A DNA stretch of 64,000 nucleotides from Escherichia coli (GTDB taxonomy: Bacteria; Pseudomonadota; Gammaproteobacteria; Enterobacterales; Enterobacteriaceae): the NCBI RefSeq assembly GCF_050920415.1, contig NZ_CP169309.1. The stretch is one strand, 5' to 3'. This document shows positions 6,462-60,832 of the stretch, piece after piece. Position 1 is the first letter of the stretch; every line of letters begins with the position of its first letter. The translations under genes were made by a program, and so were the position numbers. The notes under the pieces are model-generated. The model was not told where the DNA came from and ran no database searches. It saw only the letters and a program-made list of their open reading frames with translations.

Positions 6462-7799
6462 TTAGTTTGGCAGCGTGCGATCTGGCGTCGTCACCGTGCT
6501 GGCCGTTTGTGCCGTTGCCCCCTGCGGCGCAGATTGCATCGGATGCGCAAGGAAATAATTGCGCAGGCCTTTGTAAATGGCTTCTGCCAGCTGTTGTTGG
6601 TAATCGTCGCTCGCCAGCAAACGTTCTTCGCTGTTGTTGCTGATAAAACCGGTTTCGACCAGTACTGATGGGATATCCGGCGAACGCAGAACGCCAAGGC
6701 TGGCATGTTCTGGTCGACGTTTATGAATTTCGCCGATGCGTTGCAACTGACTGATCATACTGGTCGCCACATCATACCCTACCCGCTGGGAATGACCGAA
6801 CTGTAAATCCAGCACCGCCTGGCTTAAATAGGGGTCAGACTGACTGTTCGCCAGCACATCGCCCGCTCCGCCCAGCAGCTCCGACTGTTTCTCATGCTGC
6901 TCCAGCCAGCTGGCCATTTCGCTGTTGGCGCGACGGTTAGAGAGCACCCATACGGAAGCGCCAGTCGCACTGCGGTTCGGTGCGGCATCAGCGTGAATCG
7001 AGACGAGGAAATTGGCGTTTTGCTTACGTGCCACATCGCTGCGCCCCATTACCGAGATAAAGTAATCCCCGTCACGGGTTAAAACGCCCTTAAACATCGG
7101 ATCATCATTGAGTAAAGTACGCAATTTACGTGCGATGGCGATGGTGACATTTTTCTCCCGCGTACCACCAGGGCCGATAGCGCCAGGATCCTGACCGCCG
7201 TGTCCGGCATCAATAGCGATGATAATTTTATCGCCTGTGTTAGCCGTCGCGCGCGCTGCCGGACGCGTTACCGTATTACTGCTGATAACACCCGTAGTGC
7301 GGTTACTTTCCGTTTTAAACGGATTGCGCGCCGGTTCGCTGACGCGCGGTGCGACAACCGCAGGCGTTTCAACGCGCTTCGCAACCACTGGCGGCGGTGG
7401 AGGCGGTGGCGGCGCATCAGCGTTAATCGTAAAGACGACAGTGTAATTGCTACCATTCTGCCGCTTCACCGCTTCGGTTTTACCGTTTTCGGTGAGATCG
7501 ACCACCAGCCGTAGCGTTTGTGCATCTTTAGGCGTTCCAGAGCGAATCGCCTTCACCAGATTATTACCGCTGAACAACAACGGTAGCCCCTGAATCACGC
7601 CCGTTTGTTTGATATCGAGCGCCACGGTGCGTTTGTTTTGATGGCTAAACGCGTAATCAGGATCGCCAGTAAAACTCAATGTTATTCGCGCCTGTTGATT
7701 ACCGTTAGAAACCTGAATATCAGAGAGCGTAGCGGCGCCAGCCTGCGCGCACAGCAGCAGCAACGTCGCTACCAACCAATTTCTGATGCGATACATCAT
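6462..7799 (-). CDS. amiB: N-acetylmuramoyl-L-alanine amidase AmiB
   Basis: ORF-track 450 aa; start set at internal Met (MMYRIRNW...); signal peptide, poly-Pro linker, amidase_3 domain. Confidence 0.9.
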
Positions 7800-30509: not shown

Positions 30510-32168
<1,659 letters not shown>

Positions 32169-32199
32169 TTAAATTCGTATGTTCAGTGTCGTGCGCGGA

Positions 32200-32544
<345 letters not shown>

Positions 32545-32572
32545 TTAAGTGGTTTCCCGGCTGGTGACCAGA

Positions 32573-32605
32573 GAAATGGGGGTGAGGCTTCGCCCCTTCA
32601 AGGGG
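32573..32605 (-). promoter_or_regulatory. Sigma-32 heat-shock promoter of groESL
   Basis: Minus strand CCCTTGAA (-35) and CCCCATTTC (-10) separated by 15 nt, matching the sigma-32 consensus (CTTGAAA ... CCCCATNT). Confidence 0.6.
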
Positions 32606-32768
32606 GAAAATGAAAAAAAATTCTGATCAGCACAAAATCAGGTGAAAACACTGATTCACCTCACATTTCATCGCAATTTATTCATCGCCGTCATAAGCGA
32701 ATCTGATTGTGCTACCATCGAAAATCTACGCAGTTGCCCAAGATTTGGGCGCAATCGGACATCAACCC

Positions 32769-34025
32769 ATGAGTGGACTCAAACAAGAACTGGGGCTGGC
32801 CCAGGGCATCGGCCTGCTATCGACGTCATTATTAGGCACTGGCGTGTTTGCCGTTCCTGCGTTAGCTGCACTGGTAGCAGGCAATACCAGCCTGTGGGCG
32901 TGGCCCGTTTTGATTATCTTAGTGTTCCCGATTGCAATTGTGTTTGCGATTCTGGGTCGCCACTATCCCAGTGCAGGCGGCGTCGCACACTTCGTCGGTA
33001 TGGCGTTTGGTTCGCGGCTTGAGCGAGTCACCGGCTGGTTATTTTTATCGGTCATTCCCGTGGGTTTGCCTGCCGCGCTACAAATTGCTGCCGGGTTCGG
33101 CCAGGCGATGTTTGGCTGGCATAGCTGGCAACTGTTGTTAGCAGAACTCGGTACGCTGGCGTTGGTGTGGTATATCGGTACTCGCGGTGCCAATTCCAGT
33201 GCTAATCTACAAACAGTTATTGCCGGACTTATCGTCGCGCTGATTGTCGCTATCTGGTGGGCGGGTGATATCCAACCTGCGAATATCCCCTTCCCTGCAC
33301 CTGGTAATATCGAACTTACCGGGTTATTTGCTGCGTTATCAGTGATGTTCTGGTGCTTTGTCGGTCTGGAAGCATTTGCCCATCTTGCCTCGGAATTTAA
33401 AAATCCAGAGCGTGATTTTCCTCGCGCGTTGATGATTGGTCTGCTGCTGGCAGGATTAGTCTACTGGGGCTGTACGGTAGTCGTCTTACACTTCGACGCC
33501 TACGGTGAAAAAATGGCAGCGGCAGCATCGCTTCCAAAAATTGTGGTGCAGCTGTTCGGTGTAGGGGCGTTATGGATTGCCTGCGTGATTGGCTATCTGG
33601 CCTGCTTTGCCAGTCTCAACATTTATATACAGAGTTTCGCCCGCCTGGTCTGGTCACAAGCGCAACATAATCCTGACCACTACCTGGCACGCCTCTCTTC
33701 TCGTCATATTCCGCGTAATGCCCTCAATGCGGTGCTCGGCTGCTGCGTGGTGAGCACGTTGGTGATTCATGCTTTAGAGATCAATCTGGACGCACTTATC
33801 ATCTATGCCAATGGCATCTTTATTATGATTTATCTGTTATGCATGCTGGCAGGCTGTAAATTATTGCAAGGACGTTATCGACTACTGGCGGTGGTTGGCG
33901 GGCTGTTATGCGTTCTGTTACTGGCAATGGTCGGCTGGAAAAGTCTCTATGCGCTGATCATGCTGGCGGGGTTATGGCTGTTTCTGCCAAAACGAAAAAC
34001 GCCGGAAAATGGCATAACCACATAA
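32769..34025 (+). CDS. yjeH: APC-family amino acid exporter YjeH
   Basis: ORF-track 438 aa; start set at MSGLKQELGLAQGIGLL...; multi-TM APC permease. Confidence 0.88.
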   Translation: MSGLKQELGLAQGIGLLSTSLLGTGVFAVPALAALVAGNTSLWAWPVLIILVFPIAIVFAILGRHYPSAGGVAHFVGMAFGSRLERVTGWLFLSVIPVGLPAALQIAAGFGQAMFGWHSWQLLLAELGTLALVWYIGTRGANSSANLQTVIAGLIVALIVAIWWAGDIQPANIPFPAPGNIELTGLFAALSVMFWCFVGLEAFAHLASEFKNPERDFPRALMIGLLLAGLVYWGCTVVVLHFDAYGEKMAAAASLPKIVVQLFGVGALWIACVIGYLACFASLNIYIQSFARLVWSQAQHNPDHYLARLSSRHIPRNALNAVLGCCVVSTLVIHALEINLDALIIYANGIFIMIYLLCMLAGCKLLQGRYRLLAVVGGLLCVLLLAMVGWKSLYALIMLAGLWLFLPKRKTPENGITT

Positions 34026-34040
34026 TCCGGCGTTTCGGCA

Positions 34041-34517
34041 TTAATCCTGGCGATCGTCTTTATGATCAAGGCGGTCGCGCTCATCATCCTTTCGCTGGTA
34101 CTCACCATCAAAAGTATTACCGCCACCGGTCCCGGCGCTAAAACCGCCGCCTGGCATGCGAGAAAAGCGCAAATGCGGCATCAACTTCACCGTCAGATGC
34201 TTTTGCACCGGCGGTAATAAAAGCAGAAGGCCGAGGAAGTCGGTGAAAAAGCCCGGTAATAAAAGCAGCAAACCGGCAATGATCAGCGAAACACTTTTAA
34301 TCATCTCCGCCGCTGGGTTTTCACCTGCCGCCATTTTTTGCTGCATCAGCACGAAATTCTTAAAGCCCTGGTTACGTACCAGTGACATACCGATAACTGA
34401 CGTGAATATAACCAGCACGAGGGTCAGCAATACCCCCAATACATGGGCAACCTGAATAAAGATTGAAATCTCAATATAGACATAAAGGAAAATGGCAATA
34501 AAAGGTAACCAGCGCAA
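34041..34517 (-). CDS. fxsA: Inner membrane protein FxsA
   Basis: 158-aa ORF MRWLPFIAIFLYVYIEISIFIQVAHVLGV... Confidence 0.9.
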   Translation of the reverse strand: MRWLPFIAIFLYVYIEISIFIQVAHVLGVLLTLVLVIFTSVIGMSLVRNQGFKNFVLMQQKMAAGENPAAEMIKSVSLIIAGLLLLLPGFFTDFLGLLLLLPPVQKHLTVKLMPHLRFSRMPGGGFSAGTGGGNTFDGEYQRKDDERDRLDHKDDRQD

Positions 34518-34853: not shown

Positions 34854-36290
34854 ATGTCAAACAACATTCGTATCGAAGAAGATCTGTTGGGTACCAGGGA
34901 AGTTCCAGCTGATGCCTACTATGGTGTTCACACTCTGAGAGCGATTGAAAACTTCTATATCAGCAACAACAAAATCAGTGATATTCCTGAATTTGTTCGC
35001 GGTATGGTAATGGTTAAAAAAGCCGCAGCTATGGCAAACAAAGAGCTGCAAACCATTCCTAAAAGTGTAGCGAATGCCATCATTGCCGCATGTGATGAAG
35101 TCCTGAACAACGGAAAATGCATGGATCAGTTCCCGGTAGACGTCTACCAGGGCGGCGCAGGTACTTCCGTAAACATGAACACCAACGAAGTGCTGGCCAA
35201 TATCGGTCTGGAACTGATGGGTCACCAGAAAGGTGAATATCAGTACCTGAACCCGAACGACCATGTTAACAAATGTCAGTCCACTAACGACGCCTACCCG
35301 ACCGGTTTCCGTATCGCAGTTTACTCTTCCCTGATTAAGCTGGTAGATGCGATTAACCAACTGCGTGAAGGCTTTGAACGTAAAGCTGTCGAATTCCAGG
35401 ACATCCTGAAAATGGGTCGTACCCAGCTACAGGACGCAGTACCGATGACCCTCGGTCAGGAATTCCGCGCTTTCAGCATCCTGCTGAAAGAAGAAGTGAA
35501 AAATATTCAACGTACCGCTGAGCTGCTGCTGGAAGTTAACCTTGGCGCAACAGCAATCGGTACTGGTCTGAACACGCCGAAAGAGTACTCTCCGCTGGCA
35601 GTGAAAAAACTGGCTGAAGTCACTGGCTTCCCATGCGTACCGGCTGAAGACCTGATCGAAGCGACCTCTGACTGCGGCGCTTATGTTATGGTTCACGGCG
35701 CGCTGAAACGCCTGGCTGTGAAGATGTCCAAAATCTGTAACGACCTGCGCTTGCTCTCTTCTGGTCCACGTGCCGGCCTGAACGAGATCAACCTGCCGGA
35801 ACTGCAGGCGGGCTCTTCCATCATGCCAGCTAAAGTAAACCCGGTTGTTCCGGAAGTGGTTAACCAGGTATGCTTCAAAGTCATCGGTAACGACACCACT
35901 GTTACCATGGCAGCAGAAGCAGGTCAGCTGCAGTTGAACGTTATGGAGCCGGTCATTGGCCAGGCTATGTTCGAATCCGTTCACATTCTGACCAACGCTT
36001 GCTACAACCTGCTGGAAAAATGCATTAACGGCATCACGGCTAACAAAGAAGTGTGCGAAGGTTACGTTTACAACTCTATCGGTATCGTTACTTACCTGAA
36101 CCCGTTCATCGGTCACCACAACGGTGACATCGTGGGTAAAATCTGTGCCGAAACCGGTAAGAGTGTACGTGAAGTCGTTCTGGAACGCGGTCTGTTGACT
36201 GAAGCGGAACTTGACGATATTTTCTCCGTACAGAATCTGATGCACCCGGCTTACAAAGCAAAACGCTATACTGATGAAAGCGAACAGTAA
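34854..36290 (+). CDS. aspA: Aspartate ammonia-lyase
   Basis: ORF-track 493 aa; start set at [24 protein letters not shown]... (478 aa); fumarase/aspartase signature [10 protein letters not shown]. Confidence 0.97.
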
Positions 36291-36314
36291 TCGTACAGGG
36301 TAGTACAAATAGAG

Positions 36315-36342
36315 AAGGCACGTCAGATGACGTGCCTTTTTT
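36315..36342 (+). terminator. Rho-independent terminator after aspA
   Basis: Hairpin GGCACGTCA-GAT-GACGTGCC followed by TTTTTT. Confidence 0.6.
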
Positions 36343-36407
36343 CTTGTGAGCAGTAACTTAAAAATAACAATCTAATATCAACTTGTTAAAAAACAAGGAA
36401 GGCTAAT

Positions 36408-37709
36408 ATGCTAGTTGTAGAACTCATCATAGTTTTGCTGGCGATCTTCTTGGGCGCCAGATTGGGGGGAATAGGTATTGGTTTTGCAGGCGGATTGGGG
36501 GTGCTGGTTCTTGCCGCTATTGGCGTTAAACCCGGTAACATCCCGTTCGATGTCATTTCCATTATCATGGCGGTTATCGCCGCTATTTCTGCCATGCAGG
36601 TTGCTGGCGGTCTGGACTATCTGGTTCATCAGACAGAAAAGCTGCTGCGCCGTAACCCGAAATACATCACGATCCTCGCACCGATCGTGACCTATTTCCT
36701 GACAATCTTTGCTGGTACTGGCAACATCTCTCTGGCAACGCTGCCTGTTATCGCTGAAGTTGCGAAGGAACAAGGCGTTAAACCGTGCCGTCCGCTGTCT
36801 ACTGCAGTGGTATCCGCGCAGATTGCGATCACCGCATCGCCAATCTCAGCGGCCGTGGTTTACATGTCTTCCGTAATGGAAGGTCATGGCATCAGCTACC
36901 TCCATCTGCTCTCCGTGGTCATCCCGTCCACCTTGCTGGCGGTTCTGGTGATGTCCTTCCTGGTCACTATGCTGTTCAACTCCAAACTCTCTGACGATCC
37001 GATTTATCGCAAGCGTCTGGAAGAAGGCCTCGTTGAACTGCGCGGTGAAAAGCAGATTGAAATCAAATCCGGTGCAAAAACGTCCGTCTGGCTGTTCCTG
37101 CTGGGCGTAGTTGGCGTGGTTATCTATGCAATCATCAACAGCCCAAGCATGGGTCTGGTTGAAAAACCGCTGATGAACACCACCAACGCAATCCTGATCA
37201 TCATGCTCAGCGTTGCAACTCTGACCACCGTTATCTGTAAAGTCGATACCGACAACATCCTCAACTCCAGCACCTTCAAAGCAGGTATGAGCGCCTGTAT
37301 TTGTATCCTGGGTGTTGCGTGGCTGGGCGATACTTTCGTTTCCAACAACATCGACTGGATCAAAGATACCGCTGGTGAAGTGATTCAGGGTCATCCGTGG
37401 CTGCTGGCCGTCATCTTCTTCTTTGCTTCTGCTCTGCTGTACTCTCAGGCTGCAACCGCAAAAGCACTGATGCCGATGGCTCTGGCACTGAACGTTTCTC
37501 CGCTGACCGCTGTTGCTTCTTTCGCTGCGGTGTCTGGTCTGTTCATTCTGCCGACCTACCCGACGCTGGTTGCTGCGGTACAGATGGATGACACGGGTAC
37601 TACCCGTATCGGTAAATTCGTCTTCAACCATCCGTTCTTCATCCCGGGTACTCTGGGTGTTGCCCTGGCCGTTTGCTTCGGCTTCTTGCTGGGTAGCTTC
37701 ATGCTGTAA
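36408..37709 (+). CDS. dcuA: Anaerobic C4-dicarboxylate transporter DcuA
   Basis: 433-aa ORF MLVVELIIVLLAIFLGARLGGIGIG..., paralogous to the dcuB product at 54452. Confidence 0.95.
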   Translation: MLVVELIIVLLAIFLGARLGGIGIGFAGGLGVLVLAAIGVKPGNIPFDVISIIMAVIAAISAMQVAGGLDYLVHQTEKLLRRNPKYITILAPIVTYFLTIFAGTGNISLATLPVIAEVAKEQGVKPCRPLSTAVVSAQIAITASPISAAVVYMSSVMEGHGISYLHLLSVVIPSTLLAVLVMSFLVTMLFNSKLSDDPIYRKRLEEGLVELRGEKQIEIKSGAKTSVWLFLLGVVGVVIYAIINSPSMGLVEKPLMNTTNAILIIMLSVATLTTVICKVDTDNILNSSTFKAGMSACICILGVAWLGDTFVSNNIDWIKDTAGEVIQGHPWLLAVIFFFASALLYSQAATAKALMPMALALNVSPLTAVASFAAVSGLFILPTYPTLVAAVQMDDTGTTRIGKFVFNHPFFIPGTLGVALAVCFGFLLGSFML

Positions 37710-37717
37710 TGACCAAT

Positions 37718-37742
37718 CGCGGGGCTTCAGGCCCCGCTTTCT
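37718..37742 (+). terminator. Terminator-like hairpin after dcuA
   Basis: GCGGGGC-TTCAG-GCCCCGC followed by TTTCTTT. Confidence 0.5.
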
Positions 37743-37823
37743 TTCCCGCCGACTAACATCCTTCCCCCGTCCGTTGTATAGTGACCTCTCTCTTGCGGTT
37801 CCATCTGTTCTTGCGAGGTGTTT

Positions 37824-38162
37824 ATGCTTGATGAAAAAAGTTCGAATACCGCGTCTGTCGTGGTGCTATGTACGGCACCGGATGAAGCGACAGCCCAGGA
37901 TTTAGCCGCCAAAGTGCTGGCGGAAAAACTGGCGGCCTGCGCGACCTTGATCCCCGGCGCTACCTCTCTCTATTACTGGGAAGGTAAGCTGGAGCAAGAA
38001 TACGAAGTGCAGATGATTTTAAAAACTACCGTATCTCTCCAGCAGGCACTGCTGGAATGCCTGAAGGCTCATCATCCATATCAAACCCCGGAACTTCTGG
38101 TTTTACCTGTTACACACGGAGACACAGATTACCTCTCATGGCTCAACGCATCTTTACGCTGA
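37824..38162 (+). CDS. cutA: Divalent-cation tolerance protein CutA
   Basis: ORF-track 114 aa; start set at [21 protein letters not shown]...; 3' end overlaps the dsbD start. Confidence 0.9.
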
Positions 38163-39835
38163 TCCTGCTACTTTGCAGCACTTCCGTTTTTGCCGGATTA
38201 TTCGACGCGCCGGGACGTTCACAATTTGTCCCCGCAGATCAAGCCTTTGCTTTTGATTTTCAGCAAAACCAACATGACCTGAATCTGACCTGGCAGATCA
38301 AAGACGGTTACTACCTCTACCGTAAACAGGTCCGCATTACGCCGGAACACGCGAAAATTGCCGACGTGCAGCTGCCGCAAGGCGTCTGGCATGAAGATGA
38401 GTTTTACGGCAAAAGCGAGATTTACCGCGATCGGCTGACGCTTCCCGTAACCATCAACCAGGCGAGTGCGGGAGCGACGTTAACTGTCATCTACCAGGGC
38501 TGTGCTGATGCTGGTTTCTGTTATCCGCCAGAAACCAAAACCGTTCCGTTAAGCGAAGTGGTCGCCAACAACGCAGCGTCACAGCTTGTGTCTGTTCCGC
38601 AGCAAGAGCAGCCCACCGCGCAATTGCCCTTTTCCGCGCTCTGGGCGTTGTTGATCGGTATTGGTATCGCCTTTACGCCATGCGTGCTGCCAATGTACCC
38701 ACTGATTTCTGGCATCGTGCTGGGCGGTAAACAGCGGCTCTCCACTGCCAGAGCATTGTTGCTGACCTTTATTTATGTGCAGGGGATGGCGCTGACTTAC
38801 ACTGCACTGGGTCTGGTGGTTGCCGCCGCAGGGTTACAGTTCCAGGCGGCGCTACAGCACCCATACGTGCTCATTGGCCTCGCTATCGTCTTTACCTTGC
38901 TGGCGATGTCAATGTTTGGCTTGTTTACCCTGCAACTCCCCTCTTCGCTGCAAACGCGCCTCACGCTGATGAGCAATCGCCAACAGGGCGGCTCACCTGG
39001 CGGTGTATTTGTTATGGGGGCGATTGCCGGACTGATCTGTTCACCATGCACCACCGCACCGCTTAGCGCGATTCTGCTGTATATCGCCCAAAGCGGGAAC
39101 ATGTGGCTGGGCGGCGGCACGCTTTATCTCTATGCGTTGGGCATGGGCCTGCCGCTGATGCTAATTACCGTCTTTGGTAACCGCTTGCTGCCGAAAAGCG
39201 GCCCGTGGATGGAACAAGTCAAAACCGCGTTTGGTTTTGTGATCCTCGCACTGCCGGTCTTCCTGCTGGAGCGAGTGATTGGTGATATATGGGGATTACG
39301 CTTGTGGTCGGCGCTTGGTGTCGCATTCTTTGGCTGGGCCTTTATCACCAGCCTACAGGCCAAACGCGGCTGGATGAGCGTAGTGCAAATAATTCTGCTG
39401 GCAGCAGCATTGGTTAGCGTGCGCCCACTTCAGGATTGGGCATTTGGTGCGACGCATACCGCGCAAACTCAGACGCATCTCAACTTTACACAAATCAAAA
39501 CGGTAGATGAGTTAAATCAGGCGCTCGTTGAAGCCAAAGGCAAACCAGTGATGTTAGATCTCTATGCCGACTGGTGCGTCGCCTGTAAAGAGTTTGAGAA
39601 ATACACCTTCAGCGACCCGCAGGTGCAAAAAGCGTTAGCAGACACGGTATTACTTCAGGCCAACGTCACTGCCAACGACGCCCAAGATGTGGCGCTGTTA
39701 AAGCATCTTAATGTCCTTGGCCTACCGACAATTCTCTTTTTTGACGGACAAGGCCAGGAGCATCCACAAGCACGCGTCACGGGCTTTATGGATGCTGAAA
39801 CCTTCAGCGCACATTTGCGCGATCGCCAACCGTGA
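38138..39835 (+). CDS. dsbD: Thiol:disulfide interchange protein DsbD
   Basis: ORF-track 592 aa; start set at [19 protein letters not shown]...; thioredoxin-like C-terminal CVAC motif. Confidence 0.93.
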
Positions 39836-39871
39836 ACGACACTTGCAGTGGGAAAGACGGAGGAAAATAGC

Positions 39872-40447
39872 GTGCAACGTGAAGATGTACTGGGAGAAGC
39901 CCTGAAATTATTAGAATTACAAGGGATTGCCAACACCACGCTGGAGATGGTTGCTGAACGTGTGGATTATCCACTGGACGAGCTACGCCGCTTCTGGCCA
40001 GACAAAGAGGCAATCCTCTATGATGCGCTGCGCTATCTTAGCCAACAGATAGATGTCTGGCGTCGTCAGCTGATGCTGGACGAAACGCAAACCGCCGAAC
40101 AAAAGCTGCTGGCACGTTATCAGGCGTTATCGGAGTGCGTTAAAAACAACCGCTATCCGGGCTGTCTGTTTATCGCTGCCTGTACGTTTTATCCCGATCC
40201 TGGCCACCCTATTCATCAACTGGCCGATCAGCAAAAAAGCGCGGCCTACGATTTCACCCACGAACTGTTAACCACGCTGGAAGTTGACGATCCGGCGATG
40301 GTAGCAAAGCAGATGGAACTGGTGCTGGAAGGCTGTTTAAGCCGAATGCTGGTGAATCGTAGCCACGCGGATGTCGACACCGCACATCGGCTGGCAGAAG
40401 ATATCCTGCGCTTCGCTCGCTGCCGCCAGGGTGGCGCACTGACCTGA
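39872..40447 (+). CDS. yjdC: TetR-family transcriptional regulator YjdC
   Basis: About 191 aa from an apparent GTG start ([31 protein letters not shown]...), HTH TetR N-terminus. Confidence 0.8.
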
Positions 40448-40553
40448 CAGAAACACAGAAAAGAAGCGATTTGCCGCAATCTTAAGCAGTTGAATCGCTT
40501 TTACTGAAATTAGGTTGACGAGATGTGCAGATTACGGTTTAATGCGCCCCGTT

Positions 40554-40629
40554 GCCCGGATAGCTCAGTCGGTAGAGCAGGGGATTGAAAATCCCCGTGT
40601 CCTTGGTTCGATTCCGAGTCCGGGCACCA
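40554..40629 (+). tRNA. pheU: tRNA-Phe (anticodon GAA)
   Basis: GCCCGGATAGCTCAGTCGGTAGAGCAGGGGATTGAAAATCCCCGTGTCCTTGGTTCGATTCCGAGTCCGGGCACCA. Confidence 0.95.
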
Positions 40630-40638
40630 AATTCATAT

Positions 40639-40667
40639 AAACGGACCTCCACGGAGGTCCGTTTTTC
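40639..40667 (+). terminator. Rho-independent terminator after tRNA-Phe
   Basis: Hairpin GGACCTCC...GGAGGTCC followed by TTTTT. Confidence 0.7.
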
Positions 40668-40670
40668 GTT

Positions 40671-40946
40671 TCAGGACGCCATGTGATTTAAGCGTTCTGC
40701 CTTCAAATCATTTCTAACAATCTCAACCAAATTTTCCCACATCGCCAGCATGTTGCGGGTATACCCCAGCTCTGGGAAATTTATCCCTAAGCTATGAATG
40801 ACTCTCACGAAATGTCGTGCGGCTGCGTGATGCAGTTGAAAATCAAATGATGTCATCAAGAGCTTAACGGTATCGTTGCCGATGACATATATAAAGCACA
40901 ACCTCGGGCAGAACGCCGACTGATGAGATTTTCTGAATGAGAACAA
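40671..40946 (-). pseudogene. Possible degenerate integrase-like remnant ORF next to tRNA-Phe (uncertain)
   Basis: 91-aa ORF next to the tRNA 3' end; contains H-x-x-x-R and L-G-Y segments loosely resembling tyrosine-recombinase C-terminal motifs; no full-length partner. Confidence 0.3.
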
Positions 40947-41260
40947 AGAGAAATGTATCAGTCCGCTTGCTCATGCAAAGACTAACAATCCATAAAAATA
41001 GTAAGCGCGCCGGGCAATTTCCCATGGATTATTTTCTGAACATTTTTCTTTGGCAAAGATGATGAATTTTGATGATAAGGAATATTACTTCTGGTTCTCA
41101 GTAAAATCCTTTCGTAATACTATGTAATCAAGAAGTTTATGGCTGGTAAAAATAACGTCTTGCATTCACCAATTATATGTAAATAAAACCATCTATAGAT
41201 GGTAAAAATAGGTTGTGGCAATTATCATTGAACCATTCCCTTTTCGAATGAGTTTCTATT

Positions 41261-42799
41261 ATGCAACAACCTGTAGTTCGCGTTGGCGAATGGCTTGTTA
41301 CTCCGTCCATAAACCAAATTAGTCGCAATGGGCGTCAACTTACCCTTGAGCCGAGATTAATCGATCTTCTGGTTTTCTTTGCTCAACACAGTGGCGAAGT
41401 ACTTAGCAGGGATGAACTTATCGATAATGTCTGGAAGAGAAGTATTGTCACCAATCACGTTGTGACGCAGAGTATCTCAGAACTACGTAAGTCATTAAAA
41501 GATAATGATGAAGATAGTCCTGTCTATATCGCTACTGTACCAAAGCGCGGCTATAAATTAATGGTGCCGGTTATCTGGTACAGCGAAGAAGAGGGAGAGG
41601 AAATAATGCTATCTTCGCCTCCCCCTATACCAGAGGCGGTTCCTGACACAGATTCTCCCTCCCAAAGTCTTAACATTCAAAGCACCGCAACACCACCTGA
41701 ACAATCCCCAGTTAAAAGCAAACGATTCACTACCTTTTGGGTATGGTTTTTTTTCCTGTTGTCGTTAGGTATCTGTGTAGCACTGGTAGCGTTTTCAAGT
41801 CTTGATACACGTCTTCCTATGAGCAAATCGCGTATTTTGCTCAATCCACGCGATATTGACATTAATATGGTAAATAAAAGTTGTAACAGCTGGAGTTCCC
41901 CGTATCAGCTCTCTTACGCGATAGGCGTGGGTGATTTGGTGGCGACATCACTTAACACCTTCTCCACCTTTATGGTGCATGACAAAATCAACTACAACAT
42001 TGATGAACCGAGCAGTTCCGGTAAAACATTATCTATTGCGTTTGTTAATCAGCGCCAATACCGTGCTCAACAATGCTTTATGTCGGTAAAATTGGTAGAC
42101 AATGCAGATGGTTCAACCATGCTGGATAAACGTTATGTCATCACTAACGGTAATCAGCTGGCGATTCAAAATGATTTACTGGAGAGTTTATCAAAAGCGT
42201 TAAACCAACCGTGGCCACAACGAATGCAGGAGATGCTCCAGCAAATTTTGCCGCATCGTGGTGCGTTATTAACTAATTTTTATCAGGCTCATGATTATTT
42301 ACTGCATGGCGATGATAAATCATTGAACCGTGCCAGTGAATTACTAGGTGAGATTGTTCAATCATCCCCCGAATTTACCTACGCGAGAGCAGAAAAAGCA
42401 TTAGTTGATATCGTGCGCCATTCTCAACATCCTTTAGATGAAAAACAATTAGCAGCACTGAATACAGAAATAGATAACATTGTTACACTGCCGGAATTGA
42501 ACAACCTGTCCATTATATATCAAATAAAAGCGGTCAGTGCTCTGGTAAAAGGTAAAACAGATGAGTCTTACCAGGCGATAAATACTGGCATTGATCTTGA
42601 AATGTCCTGGCTAAATTATGTGTTGCTTGGCAAGGTTTATGAAATGAAGGGGATGAACCGGGAAGCAGCTGATGCATATCTCACCGCCTTTAATTTACGC
42701 CCAGGGGCAAACACCCTTTACTGGATTGAAAATGGTATATTCCAGACTTCTGTTCCTTATGTTGTACCTTATCTCGACAAATTTCTCGCCTCAGAATAA
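41261..42799 (+). CDS. cadC: Membrane-integrated transcriptional activator CadC (ToxR-like)
   Basis: 512-aa ORF MQQPVVRVGEWLVTPSINQISRNGRQLTLEPRLIDLLVFF...; winged-helix N-terminus, single TM, periplasmic sensor. Confidence 0.95.
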   Translation: MQQPVVRVGEWLVTPSINQISRNGRQLTLEPRLIDLLVFFAQHSGEVLSRDELIDNVWKRSIVTNHVVTQSISELRKSLKDNDEDSPVYIATVPKRGYKLMVPVIWYSEEEGEEIMLSSPPPIPEAVPDTDSPSQSLNIQSTATPPEQSPVKSKRFTTFWVWFFFLLSLGICVALVAFSSLDTRLPMSKSRILLNPRDIDINMVNKSCNSWSSPYQLSYAIGVGDLVATSLNTFSTFMVHDKINYNIDEPSSSGKTLSIAFVNQRQYRAQQCFMSVKLVDNADGSTMLDKRYVITNGNQLAIQNDLLESLSKALNQPWPQRMQEMLQQILPHRGALLTNFYQAHDYLLHGDDKSLNRASELLGEIVQSSPEFTYARAEKALVDIVRHSQHPLDEKQLAALNTEIDNIVTLPELNNLSIIYQIKAVSALVKGKTDESYQAINTGIDLEMSWLNYVLLGKVYEMKGMNREAADAYLTAFNLRPGANTLYWIENGIFQTSVPYVVPYLDKFLASE

Positions 42800-42874
42800 G
42801 TGACTCCCGGGTTGACTCATGCTCGGGAATATTTGTTGTTGATTTTTTGTATGTTATTGTTGATATAATATGTT

Positions 42875-42900
42875 GCGGCAATTTATTTGCCGCATATTTT
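42875..42900 (+). terminator. Terminator-like hairpin after cadC
   Basis: GCGGCAAAT-TT-ATTTGCCGC followed by a T-rich run. Confidence 0.5.
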
Positions 42901-42989
42901 TTATAACAGAAATTTAACCGAAAAACATCTCTTAATTCATTGTAAATATTGAATGTTTATCTTTTCATGATATCAACTTGCGATCCTGA

Positions 42990-53883: not shown

Positions 53884-54451
53884 CGATCACGGTTATCTGT
53901 AAGTAATAATTATTACAGTAATGCAAAATACCCCTGGCACAAGTTACATCGTTCATCAGTAAAACTTGTGCCAGATCAAATATAATTCCCCCTCTCTCAC
54001 CGCTGAAAATTAATATCTCTTCGGATGAACGGTGTTTTTAATTTCAAAACGCTAACAAAAGTTAATTAACTATTATGTCGCCCACATTATGTGTATTTTT
54101 ACCCACAAATGGGTAGTTAAGAATAATCTATAAACCTGATGATACCTACCCTGAGAACAAAAATTATACCAATAAGTATCAATAAGATAGCAGCAAACAA
54201 AACATTAACATCTGCGTAGTACAAACTATAAACCCATCGCCAGAGAGTATTTCTCTCTGAAAAAACCGCTTATCACAGTGCATAAATTTGCCGCTGCTTT
54301 AATCAGCCAATATTCACTGTGAGGTATTTACTCAAGCCGGTAACGACCAAACGGATATTTAGTCAAGCTCTGAAAACAGTTCATACAAAACAGAACGTGA
54401 CTGTGATCTATTCAGCAAAAATTTAAATAGGATTATCGCGAGGGTTTACAC

Positions 54452-55869: not shown

Positions 55870-57516
55870 ATGTCAAACAAACCCTTTATCTACCAGGCAC
55901 CTTTCCCGATGGGGAAAGACAATACCGAATACTATCTACTCACGTCCGATTACGTTAGCGTTGCCGACTTCGACGGCGAAACAATCCTGAAAGTGGAACC
56001 AGAAGCCCTGACTCTGCTGGCGCAGCAAGCCTTCCACGACGCTTCTTTCATGCTCCGCCCGGCACACCAGAAACAGGTTGCTGCAATTCTTCACGATCCA
56101 GAAGCCAGCGAAAACGACAAGTACGTGGCGCTGCAATTCTTAAGAAACTCAGAAATCGCCGCCAAAGGCGTGCTGCCAACCTGCCAGGATACCGGCACCG
56201 CGATCATCGTCGGTAAAAAAGGTCAGCGCGTGTGGACCGGCGGCGGTGATGAAGAAGCGCTGTCGAAAGGCGTCTATAACACCTATATCGAAGATAACCT
56301 GCGCTATTCACAGAATGCGGCGCTGGACATGTACAAAGAGGTCAACACCGGCACTAACCTGCCTGCGCAAATCGACCTGTACGCGGTAGATGGCGATGAG
56401 TACAAATTCCTCTGCGTCGCCAAAGGCGGTGGCTCTGCCAATAAAACGTATCTCTACCAGGAAACCAAAGCCCTGCTGACTCCCGGCAAACTGAAAAACT
56501 TCCTCGTTGAGAAAATGCGTACCCTCGGTACTGCAGCCTGCCCGCCGTACCATATCGCGTTTGTGATTGGCGGTACGTCTGCGGAAACCAACCTGAAAAC
56601 CGTCAAGTTAGCAAGCGCTCACTATTACGATGAACTGCCGACCGAAGGGAACGAACATGGTCAGGCGTTCCGAGATGTCCTGCTTGAACAGGAACTGCTG
56701 GAAGAGGCCCAGAAACTCGGCCTTGGCGCGCAGTTTGGCGGTAAATACTTCGCGCACGACATCCGCGTGATCCGTCTGCCACGTCACGGCGCATCCTGCC
56801 CGGTAGGTATGGGCGTCTCCTGCTCCGCTGACCGTAACATTAAAGCGAAAATCAACCGCGAAGGTATCTGGATCGAAAAACTGGAACACAATCCAGGCCA
56901 GTACATTCCACAAGAACTGCGTCAGGCTGGTGAAGGCGAAGCGGTGAAAGTCGACCTTAACCGCCCGATGAAAGAGATCCTCGCCCAGCTTTCGCAATAC
57001 CCGGTATCCACCCGTTTGTCGCTCACCGGCACTATTATCGTGGGTCGCGATATTGCACATGCCAAGCTGAAAGAGCTGATTGACGCCGGTAAAGAACTGC
57101 CGCAGTACATCAAAGATCACCCGATCTACTACGCGGGTCCGGCGAAAACGCCTGCCGGTTATCCATCAGGTTCACTTGGCCCAACCACCGCAGGTCGTAT
57201 GGACTCCTACGTGGATCTGCTGCAATCCCACGGCGGCAGCATGATCATGCTGGCGAAAGGTAACCGCAGTCAGCAGGTCACCGACGCGTGTCATAAACAC
57301 GGCGGCTTCTACCTCGGTAGTATCGGCGGTCCGGCGGCGGTACTGGCGCAGCAGAGCATCAAGCATCTGGAATGCGTCGCTTATCCGGAGCTGGGTATGG
57401 AAGCTATCTGGAAAATCGAAGTAGAAGATTTCCCGGCGTTTATCCTGGTCGATGACAAAGGCAACGACTTCTTCCAGCAAATCGTCAACAAACAGTGCGC
57501 GAACTGCACTAAGTAA
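55870..57516 (+). CDS. fumB: Class I (Fe-S) fumarate hydratase, anaerobic (FumB)
   Basis: 548-aa [40 protein letters not shown]... Confidence 0.96.
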
Positions 57517-57638: not shown

Positions 57639-58289
57639 ATGACCCGCACACTCAAGCCGTTAATTCTTAACACCGGCGCACTGGCGCTAACGTTAATCCT
57701 GATTTATACCGGCATTTCGGCCAATGACAAACTCACCTGGCTGATGGAAGTGACACCGGTGATTATTGTCGTGCCGCTACTGCTTGCCACCGCTAAACGT
57801 TATCCGTTAACGCCGCTGCTCTATACGCTCATTTTCTTTCACGCCATCATCCTGATGGTCGGCGGGCAATACACCTACGCGAAAGTCCCCGTTGGTTTTG
57901 AGGTGCAGGAATGGCTGGGGTTGAGCCGTAATCCGTATGACAAGCTGGGGCATTTTTTCCAGGGGCTGGTGCCTGCACTGGTGGCGCGAGAAATTCTCGT
58001 TCGCGGGATGTACGTGCGCGGACGTAAAATGGTGGCGTTTCTGGTCTGCTGCGTGGCGCTGGCGATAAGCGCGATGTATGAATTAATCGAGTGGTGGGCA
58101 GCGCTGGCAATGGGTCAGGGAGCGGATGATTTTCTCGGTACCCAGGGCGACCAATGGGACACACAATCCGATATGTTCTGCGCGCTGCTTGGTGCATTAA
58201 CTACGGTGATATTCCTTGCTCGCTTTCATTGCCGCCAGCTACGGCGCTATGGCTTAATCACCAGAGCGCCGGAAGCGATTACCTCTTAA
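57639..58289 (+). CDS. yjdF: Inner membrane protein YjdF (DUF2238)
   Basis: 216-aa hydrophobic ORF MTRTLKPLILNTGALALTLILIYTG...; stop codon overlaps the melA stop. Confidence 0.8.
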   Translation: MTRTLKPLILNTGALALTLILIYTGISANDKLTWLMEVTPVIIVVPLLLATAKRYPLTPLLYTLIFFHAIILMVGGQYTYAKVPVGFEVQEWLGLSRNPYDKLGHFFQGLVPALVAREILVRGMYVRGRKMVAFLVCCVALAISAMYELIEWWAALAMGQGADDFLGTQGDQWDTQSDMFCALLGALTTVIFLARFHCRQLRRYGLITRAPEAITS

Positions 58290-59641
58290 CGGTGTAACCA
58301 GCCTGGCAGCCAGTCGCCGTGGGCGGCAATCAGGTCGTCAATAAGAGCATAGATTTCATCAATGCCCAGCACGGCAGCGGTATGTGGGTCCATCATCGCG
58401 GCATGGTAAACACGGTCGCGATTTTCTGTGAGAATGGCTTCCGTCAGCAGCGTCTGTACGTTGATATTGGTTTGCATCAGGGCGGCCAGATGCGAAGGTA
58501 GCGTACCGACTTTGGTCGGCTGAATGCCATTAGCATCAACTAAACAGGCCACTTCCACGCAACATCCTTGTGGCAGGTTATCAATCAAACCATCGTTACG
58601 GACGTTGCCATAAATCACACTCGGCTCGCCAGTCCAGATAGCGTTCATGATTGTGCTGGCATATTCCCGTGACGGTTTAATATCAATCCGGGAGGCGTTC
58701 TTATACTCCTCCAGCTCTTTATGCCAGTTTGCCAATTGTTCGACGCAGCGTTTCGGGTACTCATCCAGCGGCACTTTATAACGCTCAATCAAATCCTCAC
58801 GACCAGGCTTAATAAACCACGGTGTGTATTCAGCAAAATGTTCTGACGATTCCGTGACGAAGTAGCCCAGCTTTTTGAACATTTCATAACGCACAATATT
58901 CTGGCAGCGAGTATTGCCATGAATATTCGGCTTCGGTGCCTGCCCTGCGTCATACGCTGCCAGCAGTTCTGGGTAGAGATTCACGTAACTGCCGTCGGCG
59001 GTTTTGCGCTCCAGTTCCAGGTAAAACGCCATATGGTTGATACCCGCGCAACGGTAACGCAACGTAGCTGGGTCGATATTGAGATCACGCGCCAGCTCTT
59101 CCGCCGTTCCCTGCACCGAATGGCACAGCCCTACCTGTTTGATATGCGGATAGCGGGCATACATCGCCCAGGTATTCATCGCCATTGGGTTAACATAGTT
59201 GAGCATAGTGGCATCGGGGCAGACTTCCGTCATGTCCTCGCAAATTTGCCACAGGTGCGGAATGGTACGTAGCGCGCGCATAATACCGCCCGGCCCCAAC
59301 GTATCGGCAATGGTTTGTTCCAGACCGTGGCGCTTACAGACCTCAAAATCAGTCACCGTGCAAGGTTCATAACCGCCAATCTGAAATGCCACTACGACAA
59401 AATCGGCATCCTGTAAGGCTTCTTTCTGTTGGGTGTGGCAGGTGATTTTGCCACTGGCCCCCGCTGAATCCATCAGCTTGCGCACCACAATGTGCGACTC
59501 TTCCAGGCGGATGGGATCAATGTCCATCAGGGCAATATGCGCCGTTTTTAGCGCCTCGCGATGGAACACATCACCAAGAATATTTTTAACGAAAATCGTC
59601 GAACCAGCGCCGATAAATGTAATTTTAGGTGCAGACATCAT
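58286..59641 (-). CDS. melA: Alpha-galactosidase (melibiase) MelA, NAD/Mn-dependent GH4
   Basis: 451-aa ORF MMSAPKITFIGAGSTIFVKNILGDVF... ending ...DWLPGWLHR. Confidence 0.95.
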   Translation of the reverse strand: MMSAPKITFIGAGSTIFVKNILGDVFHREALKTAHIALMDIDPIRLEESHIVVRKLMDSAGASGKITCHTQQKEALQDADFVVVAFQIGGYEPCTVTDFEVCKRHGLEQTIADTLGPGGIMRALRTIPHLWQICEDMTEVCPDATMLNYVNPMAMNTWAMYARYPHIKQVGLCHSVQGTAEELARDLNIDPATLRYRCAGINHMAFYLELERKTADGSYVNLYPELLAAYDAGQAPKPNIHGNTRCQNIVRYEMFKKLGYFVTESSEHFAEYTPWFIKPGREDLIERYKVPLDEYPKRCVEQLANWHKELEEYKNASRIDIKPSREYASTIMNAIWTGEPSVIYGNVRNDGLIDNLPQGCCVEVACLVDANGIQPTKVGTLPSHLAALMQTNINVQTLLTEAILTENRDRVYHAAMMDPHTAAVLGIDEIYALIDDLIAAHGDWLPGWLHR

Positions 59642-59923
59642 GCAGATCTCCTGGCTTGCTTGAATAACTTCATCATGGCAGGCGAATCTGCAGAAAACCT
59701 CCGGCTTCCAGGCTGAGCATTCCCATTAACTCAGATCCTGTGTGAAGCATCAGAAAATCTGAGTTTATGGGAATAAATTAGCTGAAAAGCAGAGTTTTCG
59801 GCCTCATGGTACTCGGATGATCCCTTCGCCCCTCAGGCAAGAGGGCGAAAACCGTGCTCCCACTCGCAGTCATATTCCTACACTCCTGCCATAATTCTGA
59901 TATTCCAGGAAAGAGAGTCATCC
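59642..59923. promoter_or_regulatory. Divergent melR / melA promoter region
   Basis: Intergenic region between divergent melA and melR; individual MelR and CRP sites not resolved by eye. Confidence 0.4.
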
Positions 59924-60832
59924 ATGAATACAGATACTTTTATGTGTAGCAGCGACGAAAAACAGACCCGCAGTCCGCTGTCGCTGTATTCGGAATACCA
60001 GCGGATGGAGATTGAGTTTCGCGCACCGCATATCATGCCCACCAGCCACTGGCATGGTCAGGTCGAAGTGAATGTGCCTTTCGATGGCGATGTGGAATAC
60101 CTGATCAACAATGAAAAAGTGAGTATCAATCAGGGACATATCACGCTGTTCTGGGCCTGTACACCGCACCAACTAACAGATACCGGAACCTGTCAGAGCA
60201 TGGCGATTTTTAATCTGCCGATGCATCTGTTTCTCTCCTGGCCGCTGGATAAAGACCTGATTAACCACGTCACTCACGGCATGGTGATTAAATCACTGGC
60301 GACACAGCAACTTAGCCCGTTTGAAGTGCGCCGCTGGCAGCAGGAATTGAACAGTCCGAACGAGCAAATTCGCCAGCTCGCCATTGATGAAATTGGCCTG
60401 ATGCTCAAGCGATTTAGCCTCTCTGGCTGGGAACCGATTCTGGTCAATAAAACCTCGCGCACACACAAAAACAGCGTCTCGCGCCATGCGCAATTTTATG
60501 TCAGCCAGATGCTGGGCTTTATTGCCGAAAACTATGATCAGGCGCTGACCATCAACGATGTGGCTGAGCACGTCAAACTTAACGCCAACTATGCAATGGG
60601 GATATTCCAGCGGGTCATGCAATTGACGATGAAACAGTACATTACCGCGATGCGCATCAACCACGTTCGCGCGTTACTGAGCGATACCGATAAAAGTATT
60701 CTCGATATTGCCCTGACGGCAGGCTTTCGTTCGAGTAGCCGTTTTTACAGCACGTTCGGCAAATATGTCGGCATGTCACCGCAACAATACCGCAAACTTA
60801 GCCAACAGCGCCGCCAGACGTTTCCCGGCTAA
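59924..60832 (+). CDS. melR: AraC-family melibiose operon activator MelR
   Basis: 302-aa ORF MNTDTFMCSSDEKQTRSPLSLYSEYQRMEIEF..., C-terminal AraC HTH. Confidence 0.93.
   Translation: MNTDTFMCSSDEKQTRSPLSLYSEYQRMEIEFRAPHIMPTSHWHGQVEVNVPFDGDVEYLINNEKVSINQGHITLFWACTPHQLTDTGTCQSMAIFNLPMHLFLSWPLDKDLINHVTHGMVIKSLATQQLSPFEVRRWQQELNSPNEQIRQLAIDEIGLMLKRFSLSGWEPILVNKTSRTHKNSVSRHAQFYVSQMLGFIAENYDQALTINDVAEHVKLNANYAMGIFQRVMQLTMKQYITAMRINHVRALLSDTDKSILDIALTAGFRSSSRFYSTFGKYVGMSPQQYRKLSQQRRQTFPG

Follow-up and report, generated by a model that had tools for sequence, protein, structure and literature searches.

The mel locus of the 64-kb stretch of Escherichia coli DNA analysed here (the window) carries melR and melA, which diverge from a common regulatory region, and yjdF, which converges on melA and has fumB and dcuB upstream of it. 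The features and their coordinates are collected in Table 1. The ends of yjdF and melA run into each other: window positions 58281-58290 read ACCTCTTAAC, the stop codon of yjdF (TAA) lies at 58287-58289 and that of melA is the reverse complement of 58286-58288 (TTA). The arrangement is as the original prediction had read it from the sequence, with two convergent genes whose stop codons share 2 bp and whose reading frames share 4 bp (58286-58289). The gene for the melibiose symporter, melB, is not found directly downstream of melA, where the canonical melAB operon has it. When K-12 MelB was searched against the complete 64-kb window by tblastn, no MelB-like sequence was detected (nothing better than E = 1.7), in agreement with the earlier claim that both the gene and any trace of it are absent. 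A melB remnant at the locus, considered as a candidate, is ruled out by this empty search.

Table 1. Features of the mel locus in the window
Feature	Position	Strand	Length	Description	Source
yjdF	57639..58289	+	216 aa	DUF2238 inner-membrane protein	ORF list and K-12 alignment
Junction filler	58263..58285		23 bp	AGAGCGCCGGAAGCGATTACCTC	K-12 alignment
TTAA overlap of the yjdF and melA ORFs	58286..58289		4 bp	holds both stops	
melA	58286..59641	-	451 aa	alpha-galactosidase	ORF list
melR-melA divergent regulatory region	59642..59923		282 bp	same length in K-12	
melR	59924..60832	+	302 aa	AraC-family activator of the mel promoter, intact	ORF list

The products of the three genes left at the locus all score far above the curated cut-offs of their families. 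MelA matches the NCBIfam profile PRK15076 over residues 4-450 with 733 bits (cut-off 486) and differs from K-12 MelA at 5 residues, and MelR matches the equivalog PRK10371 over its full length with 634.8 bits (cut-off 253). YjdF scores 465.6 bits against the equivalog PRK09867 (cut-off 353), covering profile positions 1-208 of 209.

K-12 has the same neighbourhood and gene order as the window (adiA-melR-melA-melB-yjdF-fumB-dcuB), the same melR and the same regulatory region. There, melA is followed by a 102-bp spacer, melB (1,422 bp), a 138-bp spacer that holds a REP element and a hairpin, and the convergent yjdF of 209 aa. Alignment to this reference locus placed the breakpoints at 58262 on the yjdF side and at 58286 on the melA side. 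Homology to K-12 stops at the first of these, which is codon 208 of yjdF, and restarts at the second, which is the melA stop. Between them, the window has 23 bp (58263-58285) where K-12 has 1,668 bp, made up of the last 6 nt of yjdF (codon 209 and the stop), the 138-bp spacer, melB and the 102-bp melA-melB spacer. In contrast to K-12, the window therefore lacks melB, the spacers and the native yjdF stop, and its genes overlap without a terminator-like hairpin.

Because the deletion took the native stop codon, the yjdF frame runs on through the filler and YjdF is 216 rather than 209 aa long. Residues 1-208 are homologous to K-12 YjdF, whereas residues 209-216 (RAPEAITS) form a new tail of eight residues in place of the last position of the family profile, and the C-terminus reads ...LITRAPEAITS in the window as against ...LITG in K-12. 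The suspicion that the junction might lie within the 3' end of yjdF was well founded, since the left breakpoint falls in the last two yjdF codons, and the length of about 209 aa that the original prediction gave for YjdF is indeed that of the K-12 protein. The suggestion of a clean deletion has to be given up, because the filler occupies the junction.

The filler itself may derive, by decay, from the melA-melB spacer. Locally aligned to that spacer of K-12 (CAGAG..GCGCCGGAA), it scores higher than about 97.5% of shuffles (local p ~0.025); in the shuffle test against the whole deleted segment the match is not significant, and a similar score is also reached against the other spacer. A consensus scan found no terminator-like site at the junction, with fewer sites overall than in shuffles, and RNA folding of the junction gave z-scores of -1.4 and -1.8, not distinguishable from shuffles. 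A terminator or structured element at this position was ruled out by the scan together with the folding scores. The hairpin/REP region that lies downstream of melB in K-12 went with the deletion, and antisense read-through transcription between melA and yjdF would be possible in the window.

MelA was used as a query against one genome per GTDB species, and the neighbours of melA were then typed locus by locus. The unit melR-melA-melB is kept from Vibrio and Photobacterium through the Enterobacteriaceae, and the full order adiA-melR-melA-melB-yjdF-fumB, with the short form of the yjdF end, is present in Citrobacter gillenii, C. amalonaticus, C. portucalensis and C. braakii. The outgroup gene order thus makes a melB gene between melA and yjdF the ancestral state and that of the window a deletion, which upholds the assumption behind the original prediction that melA-melB-yjdF is the usual arrangement. 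Loci without melB also occur in other genera. In the Citrobacter youngae group and in Citrobacter sp. MGH106 / Res13, adiA-melR-melA is convergent with yjdF-fumB and both melA and melR are intact, as in the window. Their junctions are unlike that of the window, with a spacer of about 60 bp that carries a REP-like hairpin and with the native short yjdF end, and these two Citrobacter groups have lost melB independently of Escherichia. In K. oxytoca and Raoultella, where melB has likewise been lost, unrelated genes follow melR-melA.

Within Escherichia, the filler and the overlapping stops of the window are found again in three species representatives, E. whittamii, Escherichia sp. E1V33 and SCPM-O-B-8794. 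SCPM-O-B-8794 is a divergent genome labelled E. coli. The synonymous divergence of melA from the window is 0.31-0.51 in these three genomes and in each of them exceeds that of fumB (0.16-0.30); there is therefore no sign of a recent passage of the melB-less haplotype between species. By this comparison, the haplotype looks older than E. coli itself.

We then consider how common the junction is in E. coli. Of 5,426 complete genomes, 1,264 matched a 201-bp probe across the junction contiguously and 1,267 (~23%) did so with a 2,261-bp probe, while K-12 melB was found in 4,136 (76%). The two sets are nearly complementary, and a hidden K-12-like second melB is therefore not to be expected in the melB-less genomes. 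A hidden second mel locus was at one point suggested by a match in '2 places' in the closest relatives, and was gone once the fumB tail was dropped from the query; K-12 fumA matches this tail at 89% over 83 nt, reflecting fumA/fumB paralogy. Two assemblies that are independent of each other contain the identical junction (99.9-100% identity). The filler is common to MFDS1022581, SCU-172, AVS0747, strain 729 and UTI89 with 1-3 substitutions, and PGAP annotates the 4-bp yjdF/melA overlap in all five. A linked variant at the end of yjdF reads GGCTTAATCACC in every melB-less locus read and GGCTTGATAACC in melB-positive genomes. The common filler and the linked substitutions therefore speak for a single event rather than recurrent deletion, and this indicates that all melB-less Escherichia loci read probably descend from one shared deletion.

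UTI89, a phylogroup B2 strain, has the junction and the filler of the window with 1 SNP, including a 651-nt yjdF that overlaps melA by 4 bp, but the flanks of the window are not B2-like. The window fumB differs from that of B2-type genomes by a dS of about 0.11, equal to its dS against K-12, and the melR-melA spacer of the window is K-12-like, not B2-like. Earlier surveys had listed melB as absent from B2 strains (Touchon et al. 2009, PMC2617782) and found melibiose degradation to be negatively associated with B2 (Touchon et al. 2020, PMC7314097). Our literature search found no published description of the exact junction, the 216-aa YjdF, the occurrence in E. whittamii or the low melB diversity described below. 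The melB-less locus is an ordinary allele, already reported for B2 at the gene level, and the details of the junction refine a known polymorphism. For annotation, this means that a missing melB in E. coli is a normal allele and should be read neither as an error nor as a new deletion, and that a YjdF of 216 aa is its signature.

The window represents a rare lineage that is roughly equidistant (~98%) from the rest of the species: about 11 of the 5,426 genomes lie within ~1.3% of it over 24 kb of core sequence, and the others are at 98.0% or below. No Clermont phylogroup markers were found within the 64-kb window. The closest genome, MFDS1022581, does not differ from the window in the mel locus or in the 24 kb; it carries an IS2 between dcuR and dcuB, where the window has none. 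This close group of about 11 genomes mixes melB-less members with two that are melB-positive, R32_14_1F and 2020CK-00188. R32_14_1F is a mosaic, identical to the window through the end of fumB and the first part of yjdF and K-12-like across melB, with flanks that diverge by 2-6% from K-12.

Synonymous divergence was compared at full length between the melB-positive loci of three genomes, K-12, R32_14_1F and MOD1-EC7003, the last from another species. For melB, dS was 0.003-0.018, as against 0.115-0.134 for melA and 0.046-0.139 for yjdF; for fumB, which could be compared between K-12 and MOD1 only, it was 0.148. Flanking genes at 0.05-0.15 thus stand beside a melB that is 7- to 40-fold less diverged than the adjacent melA in the same genome pairs. 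The same pattern is seen across the species: of the 4,136 genomes that have melB, 4,127 carry it at 99% identity to K-12 or more, a level that melA attains in only 2,926 genomes. The low divergence of melB beside diverged flanks implies a recent exchange of the melB-positive segment between lineages. From these comparisons, the melB-positive allele appears to have spread recently by recombination, while the melB-less haplotypes are deep.

Loss of the symporter gene has left melA and melR intact. Both reading frames are complete in all nine melB-less Escherichia loci read and in Citrobacter youngae. Between pairs of melB-less genomes, dN/dS is 0.013-0.035 for melA and 0.017-0.043 for melR, with dS of up to 0.5, and in an alignment of nine Escherichia loci both the length of the 282-bp melR-melA spacer and its promoter-proximal blocks are conserved. 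The claim that melA and melR are intact is borne out by the full reading frames, by the profile scores above their cut-offs and by the low dN/dS. These values are what would be expected of genes under purifying selection and not of genes in decay, and a dN/dS of about 0.02 indirectly suggests that MelA has retained its alpha-galactosidase activity. The selection could stem in part from melB-positive backgrounds, via recombination within melA between the alleles. We expect melA to be still regulated by MelR.

The original prediction had spoken of an alpha-galactosidase without its cognate symporter. This is correct as far as the absence of melB goes, but it does not amount to a broken pathway, because LacY also transports melibiose. 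To be melibiose-negative, the strain DW2, which is the standard host in MelB assays, has to lack lacY as well as melB (PMC10374971). DW2 (melA+, melB-, lacZ-Y-) resembles the window in having melA without melB, and differs from it in also being without lacY and unable to ferment melibiose, whereas the closest natural genome to the window, MFDS1022581, keeps an intact lacI-lacZ-lacY-lacA. For UTI89, lacY-dependent growth has been reported only on lactose, D-melibiose and methyl-alpha-galactoside (2025 preprint, bioRxiv 10.64898/2025.12.03.691977). Taking lacY from the close relative, LacY together with MelA is the likely route of melibiose use in the strain of the window. This explains why melibiose use in melB-less strains should depend on LacY, and bears on why melibiose fermentation varies in E. 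coli. A textbook figure quoted in PMC11546641 gives about 75% of E. coli as melibiose-positive. The match with the 76% of genomes that have melB could mean that routine tests give a negative result for many melB-less strains, and if they do, LacY-mediated use of melibiose may be weak or conditional.

We consider it highly probable that the window carries a melB-less allele of the Escherichia mel locus that goes back to one old, inherited deletion, with MelR and MelA functional and with LacY as the most likely route of entry. A single deletion of about 1.65 kb would have taken melB, both spacers with the REP element and the hairpin, and the end of yjdF from its last codon on, leaving the 23-bp filler. 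Through this filler, YjdF gains eight new residues and terminates at a TAA overlapping the stop of melA. Since then, the allele would have been inherited and would now segregate in E. coli (~23%, B2 included) and in sister Escherichia species, with melB-positive and melB-less alleles swapped between lineages by homologous recombination. In cells with this allele, melibiose and other alpha-galactosides would most likely enter through LacY and be hydrolysed by MelA, with melA induced via MelR. The locus would then be a compact example of a presence/absence allele that is common to several species and moved by homologous recombination.

A contrast with K-12 alone could also be read as a recent deletion private to this strain, or as an artefact of assembly, and the original prediction had left room for a loss confined to this genome or to a single lineage. 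The chance of this is practically negligible, since about 1,265 further complete genomes and three other Escherichia species representatives have the junction with 1-3 SNPs; in the relatives, the identical junction is inherited, and the haplotypes that carry it differ by a melA dS of 0.17-0.5, which makes the event old. It is very improbable, too, that losing the transporter broke the pathway and left melA and melR as relics in decay. Such a reading can point to the lack of the cognate symporter and to the negative association of the melibiose pathway with B2 (Touchon 2020, PMC7314097), but against it stand the intact frames in all nine melB-less Escherichia loci and in Citrobacter youngae, the dN/dS of ~0.02-0.04 over a dS of up to 0.5, the absence of any PGAP pseudogene flag in MFDS1022581, SCU-172, AVS0747, strain 729 and UTI89, and the use of melibiose by UTI89 (bioRxiv 10.64898/2025.12.03.691977). 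MelA might instead be kept for substrates that need neither MelB nor LacY, being supplied by another permease (for example a plasmid- or island-borne raffinose system) or with melibiose made inside the cell from raffinose. That melR-melA without melB arose repeatedly (at two Citrobacter junctions, in K. oxytoca and in Raoultella) suggests a value of MelA that is independent of MelB. We nevertheless regard this as improbable, for the sole direct phenotype that we found, that of UTI89, is lacY-dependent, and no other alpha-galactoside transporter was found in the window, in a scan that covered MelB-like sequences only.

The history of the two alleles allows readings that depart less from the one we prefer. 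Within Escherichia, melB-less could be the older resident allele, and the K-12-type melB-positive allele a newcomer in most lineages that spread recently, by homologous recombination, from a lineage that had kept melB. The depth of the melB-less haplotypes (melA dS of up to 0.5) agrees with this, as do the junction shared with E. whittamii and E1V33, where melA dS is no lower than fumB dS and recent introgression has left no sign, the near invariance of melB (at least 99% identity in 4,127 of 4,136), its dS of 0.003-0.018 next to 0.115-0.134 in the adjacent melA, and the K-12-like block across melB in the R32 mosaic. On the other hand, the full-length comparison covers only three melB-positive genomes, and since phylogroups A, B1, C and E are close relatives, part of the low diversity of melB is to be expected. 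The deep ancestor was moreover melB-positive, as Citrobacter, Salmonella and Vibrio show, so that melB persisted somewhere in Escherichia. We hold this history to be possible, though tentatively and as the lesser likelihood. A bolder version, which we think rather doubtful, would make the presence or absence of melB an ancient trans-species polymorphism of Escherichia under selection, in which the deep melB-less haplotype predates the split from the cryptic clades and one melB-positive segment of low diversity is now spreading across phylogroups and species by homologous recombination. If it were true, a side consequence would follow from the lack of a terminator between the genes: MelR-induced transcription of melA would run antisense through yjdF and couple the two. 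The low divergence of melB may merit a short population-genetic follow-up, although it does not point to a new kind of system.

A different mel deletion has been described in STEC/EPEC O80:H2, in which melR, melA and melB are all reported absent, with a 70-bp fragment ('70mel') in their place that serves as a melibiose-negative marker (PMC11945584). Both deletions of mel genes are natural and have a short filler at the junction. The one in O80:H2 is reported to take the whole operon, whereas the window has lost melB alone and keeps melR and melA intact.

The melB gene is almost uniform (dS 0.003-0.018) when K-12 is compared with R32_14_1F, which belongs to a deep E. coli lineage, and with a different Escherichia species, Escherichia sp. 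MOD1-EC7003. In the same comparison the adjoining melA, yjdF and fumB genes have a dS of 0.05-0.15. R32_14_1F is visibly mosaic, and its K-12-like block spans melB. Outside Escherichia, the Citrobacter and Raoultella/Klebsiella loci in which melR-melA occurs without melB are independent cases. The Citrobacter loci fall into two junction types, in which the spacer carries a REP-like hairpin. The gene downstream of melA in the Klebsiella/Raoultella loci is cbpA-like and lies on the opposite strand.

Positions of melB-positive segments and of melB-less junctions outside Escherichia, in the coordinates of each fetched locus (L-number)
Feature	Locus	Position
melB-positive segment, R32_14_1F	L002	2100-4000
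melB-positive segment, MOD1-EC7003	L008	1592-3010
melB-less junctions, Citrobacter spp.	L016, L022, L028, L030, L072	about 7350-7430
melR-melA without melB, Raoultella/Klebsiella oxytoca group	L043-L046	downstream of 7344

The mel locus of MFDS1022581, the genome closest to the window, is identical to that of the window. MFDS1022581 carries an IS2 between dcuR and dcuB (1265-2493 of its fetched locus L003), and the corresponding interval of the window (53884-54451) is free of it. Because this IS2 is absent, the window represents a close relative of MFDS1022581 that is distinct from that assembly. Beyond the extent of the window, MFDS1022581 carries drt3a and drt3b, which encode antiviral reverse transcriptases, beside a small integrase-bearing element that also contains ogr/Delta-like, TOPRIM/DUF927 and Icd-like genes; together these genes and the element occupy 30978-34264 and 34883-42975 of a second fetched locus, L091.

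Within the 3′ part of melA, the window has a divergent patch of its own at positions 58350-58500: each of the other fetched Escherichia loci, melB-positive and melB-less alike, differs from it by 10-12 mismatches per 150 nt. The bins beside it differ from R32_14_1F, the closest relative, by 0-5 mismatches. The patch resembles a short segment acquired by recombination from some unsampled donor. MelA differs from the K-12 protein at five residues, and just one of these changes, V434I, falls in or near the patch.

The middle of the melR-melA intergenic region (59700-59850) was observed to be hypervariable among lineages: per 150 nt, B2-type genomes differ from the window by 37-41 mismatches and K-12 by 14. 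Conserved, in contrast, are the overall length of this region (282 bp) and its promoter-proximal blocks. At the 3′ end of fumB (57400-57482), 83 nt are 89% identical to fumA, which suffices for megablast to give spurious second matches when closely related genomes are searched.
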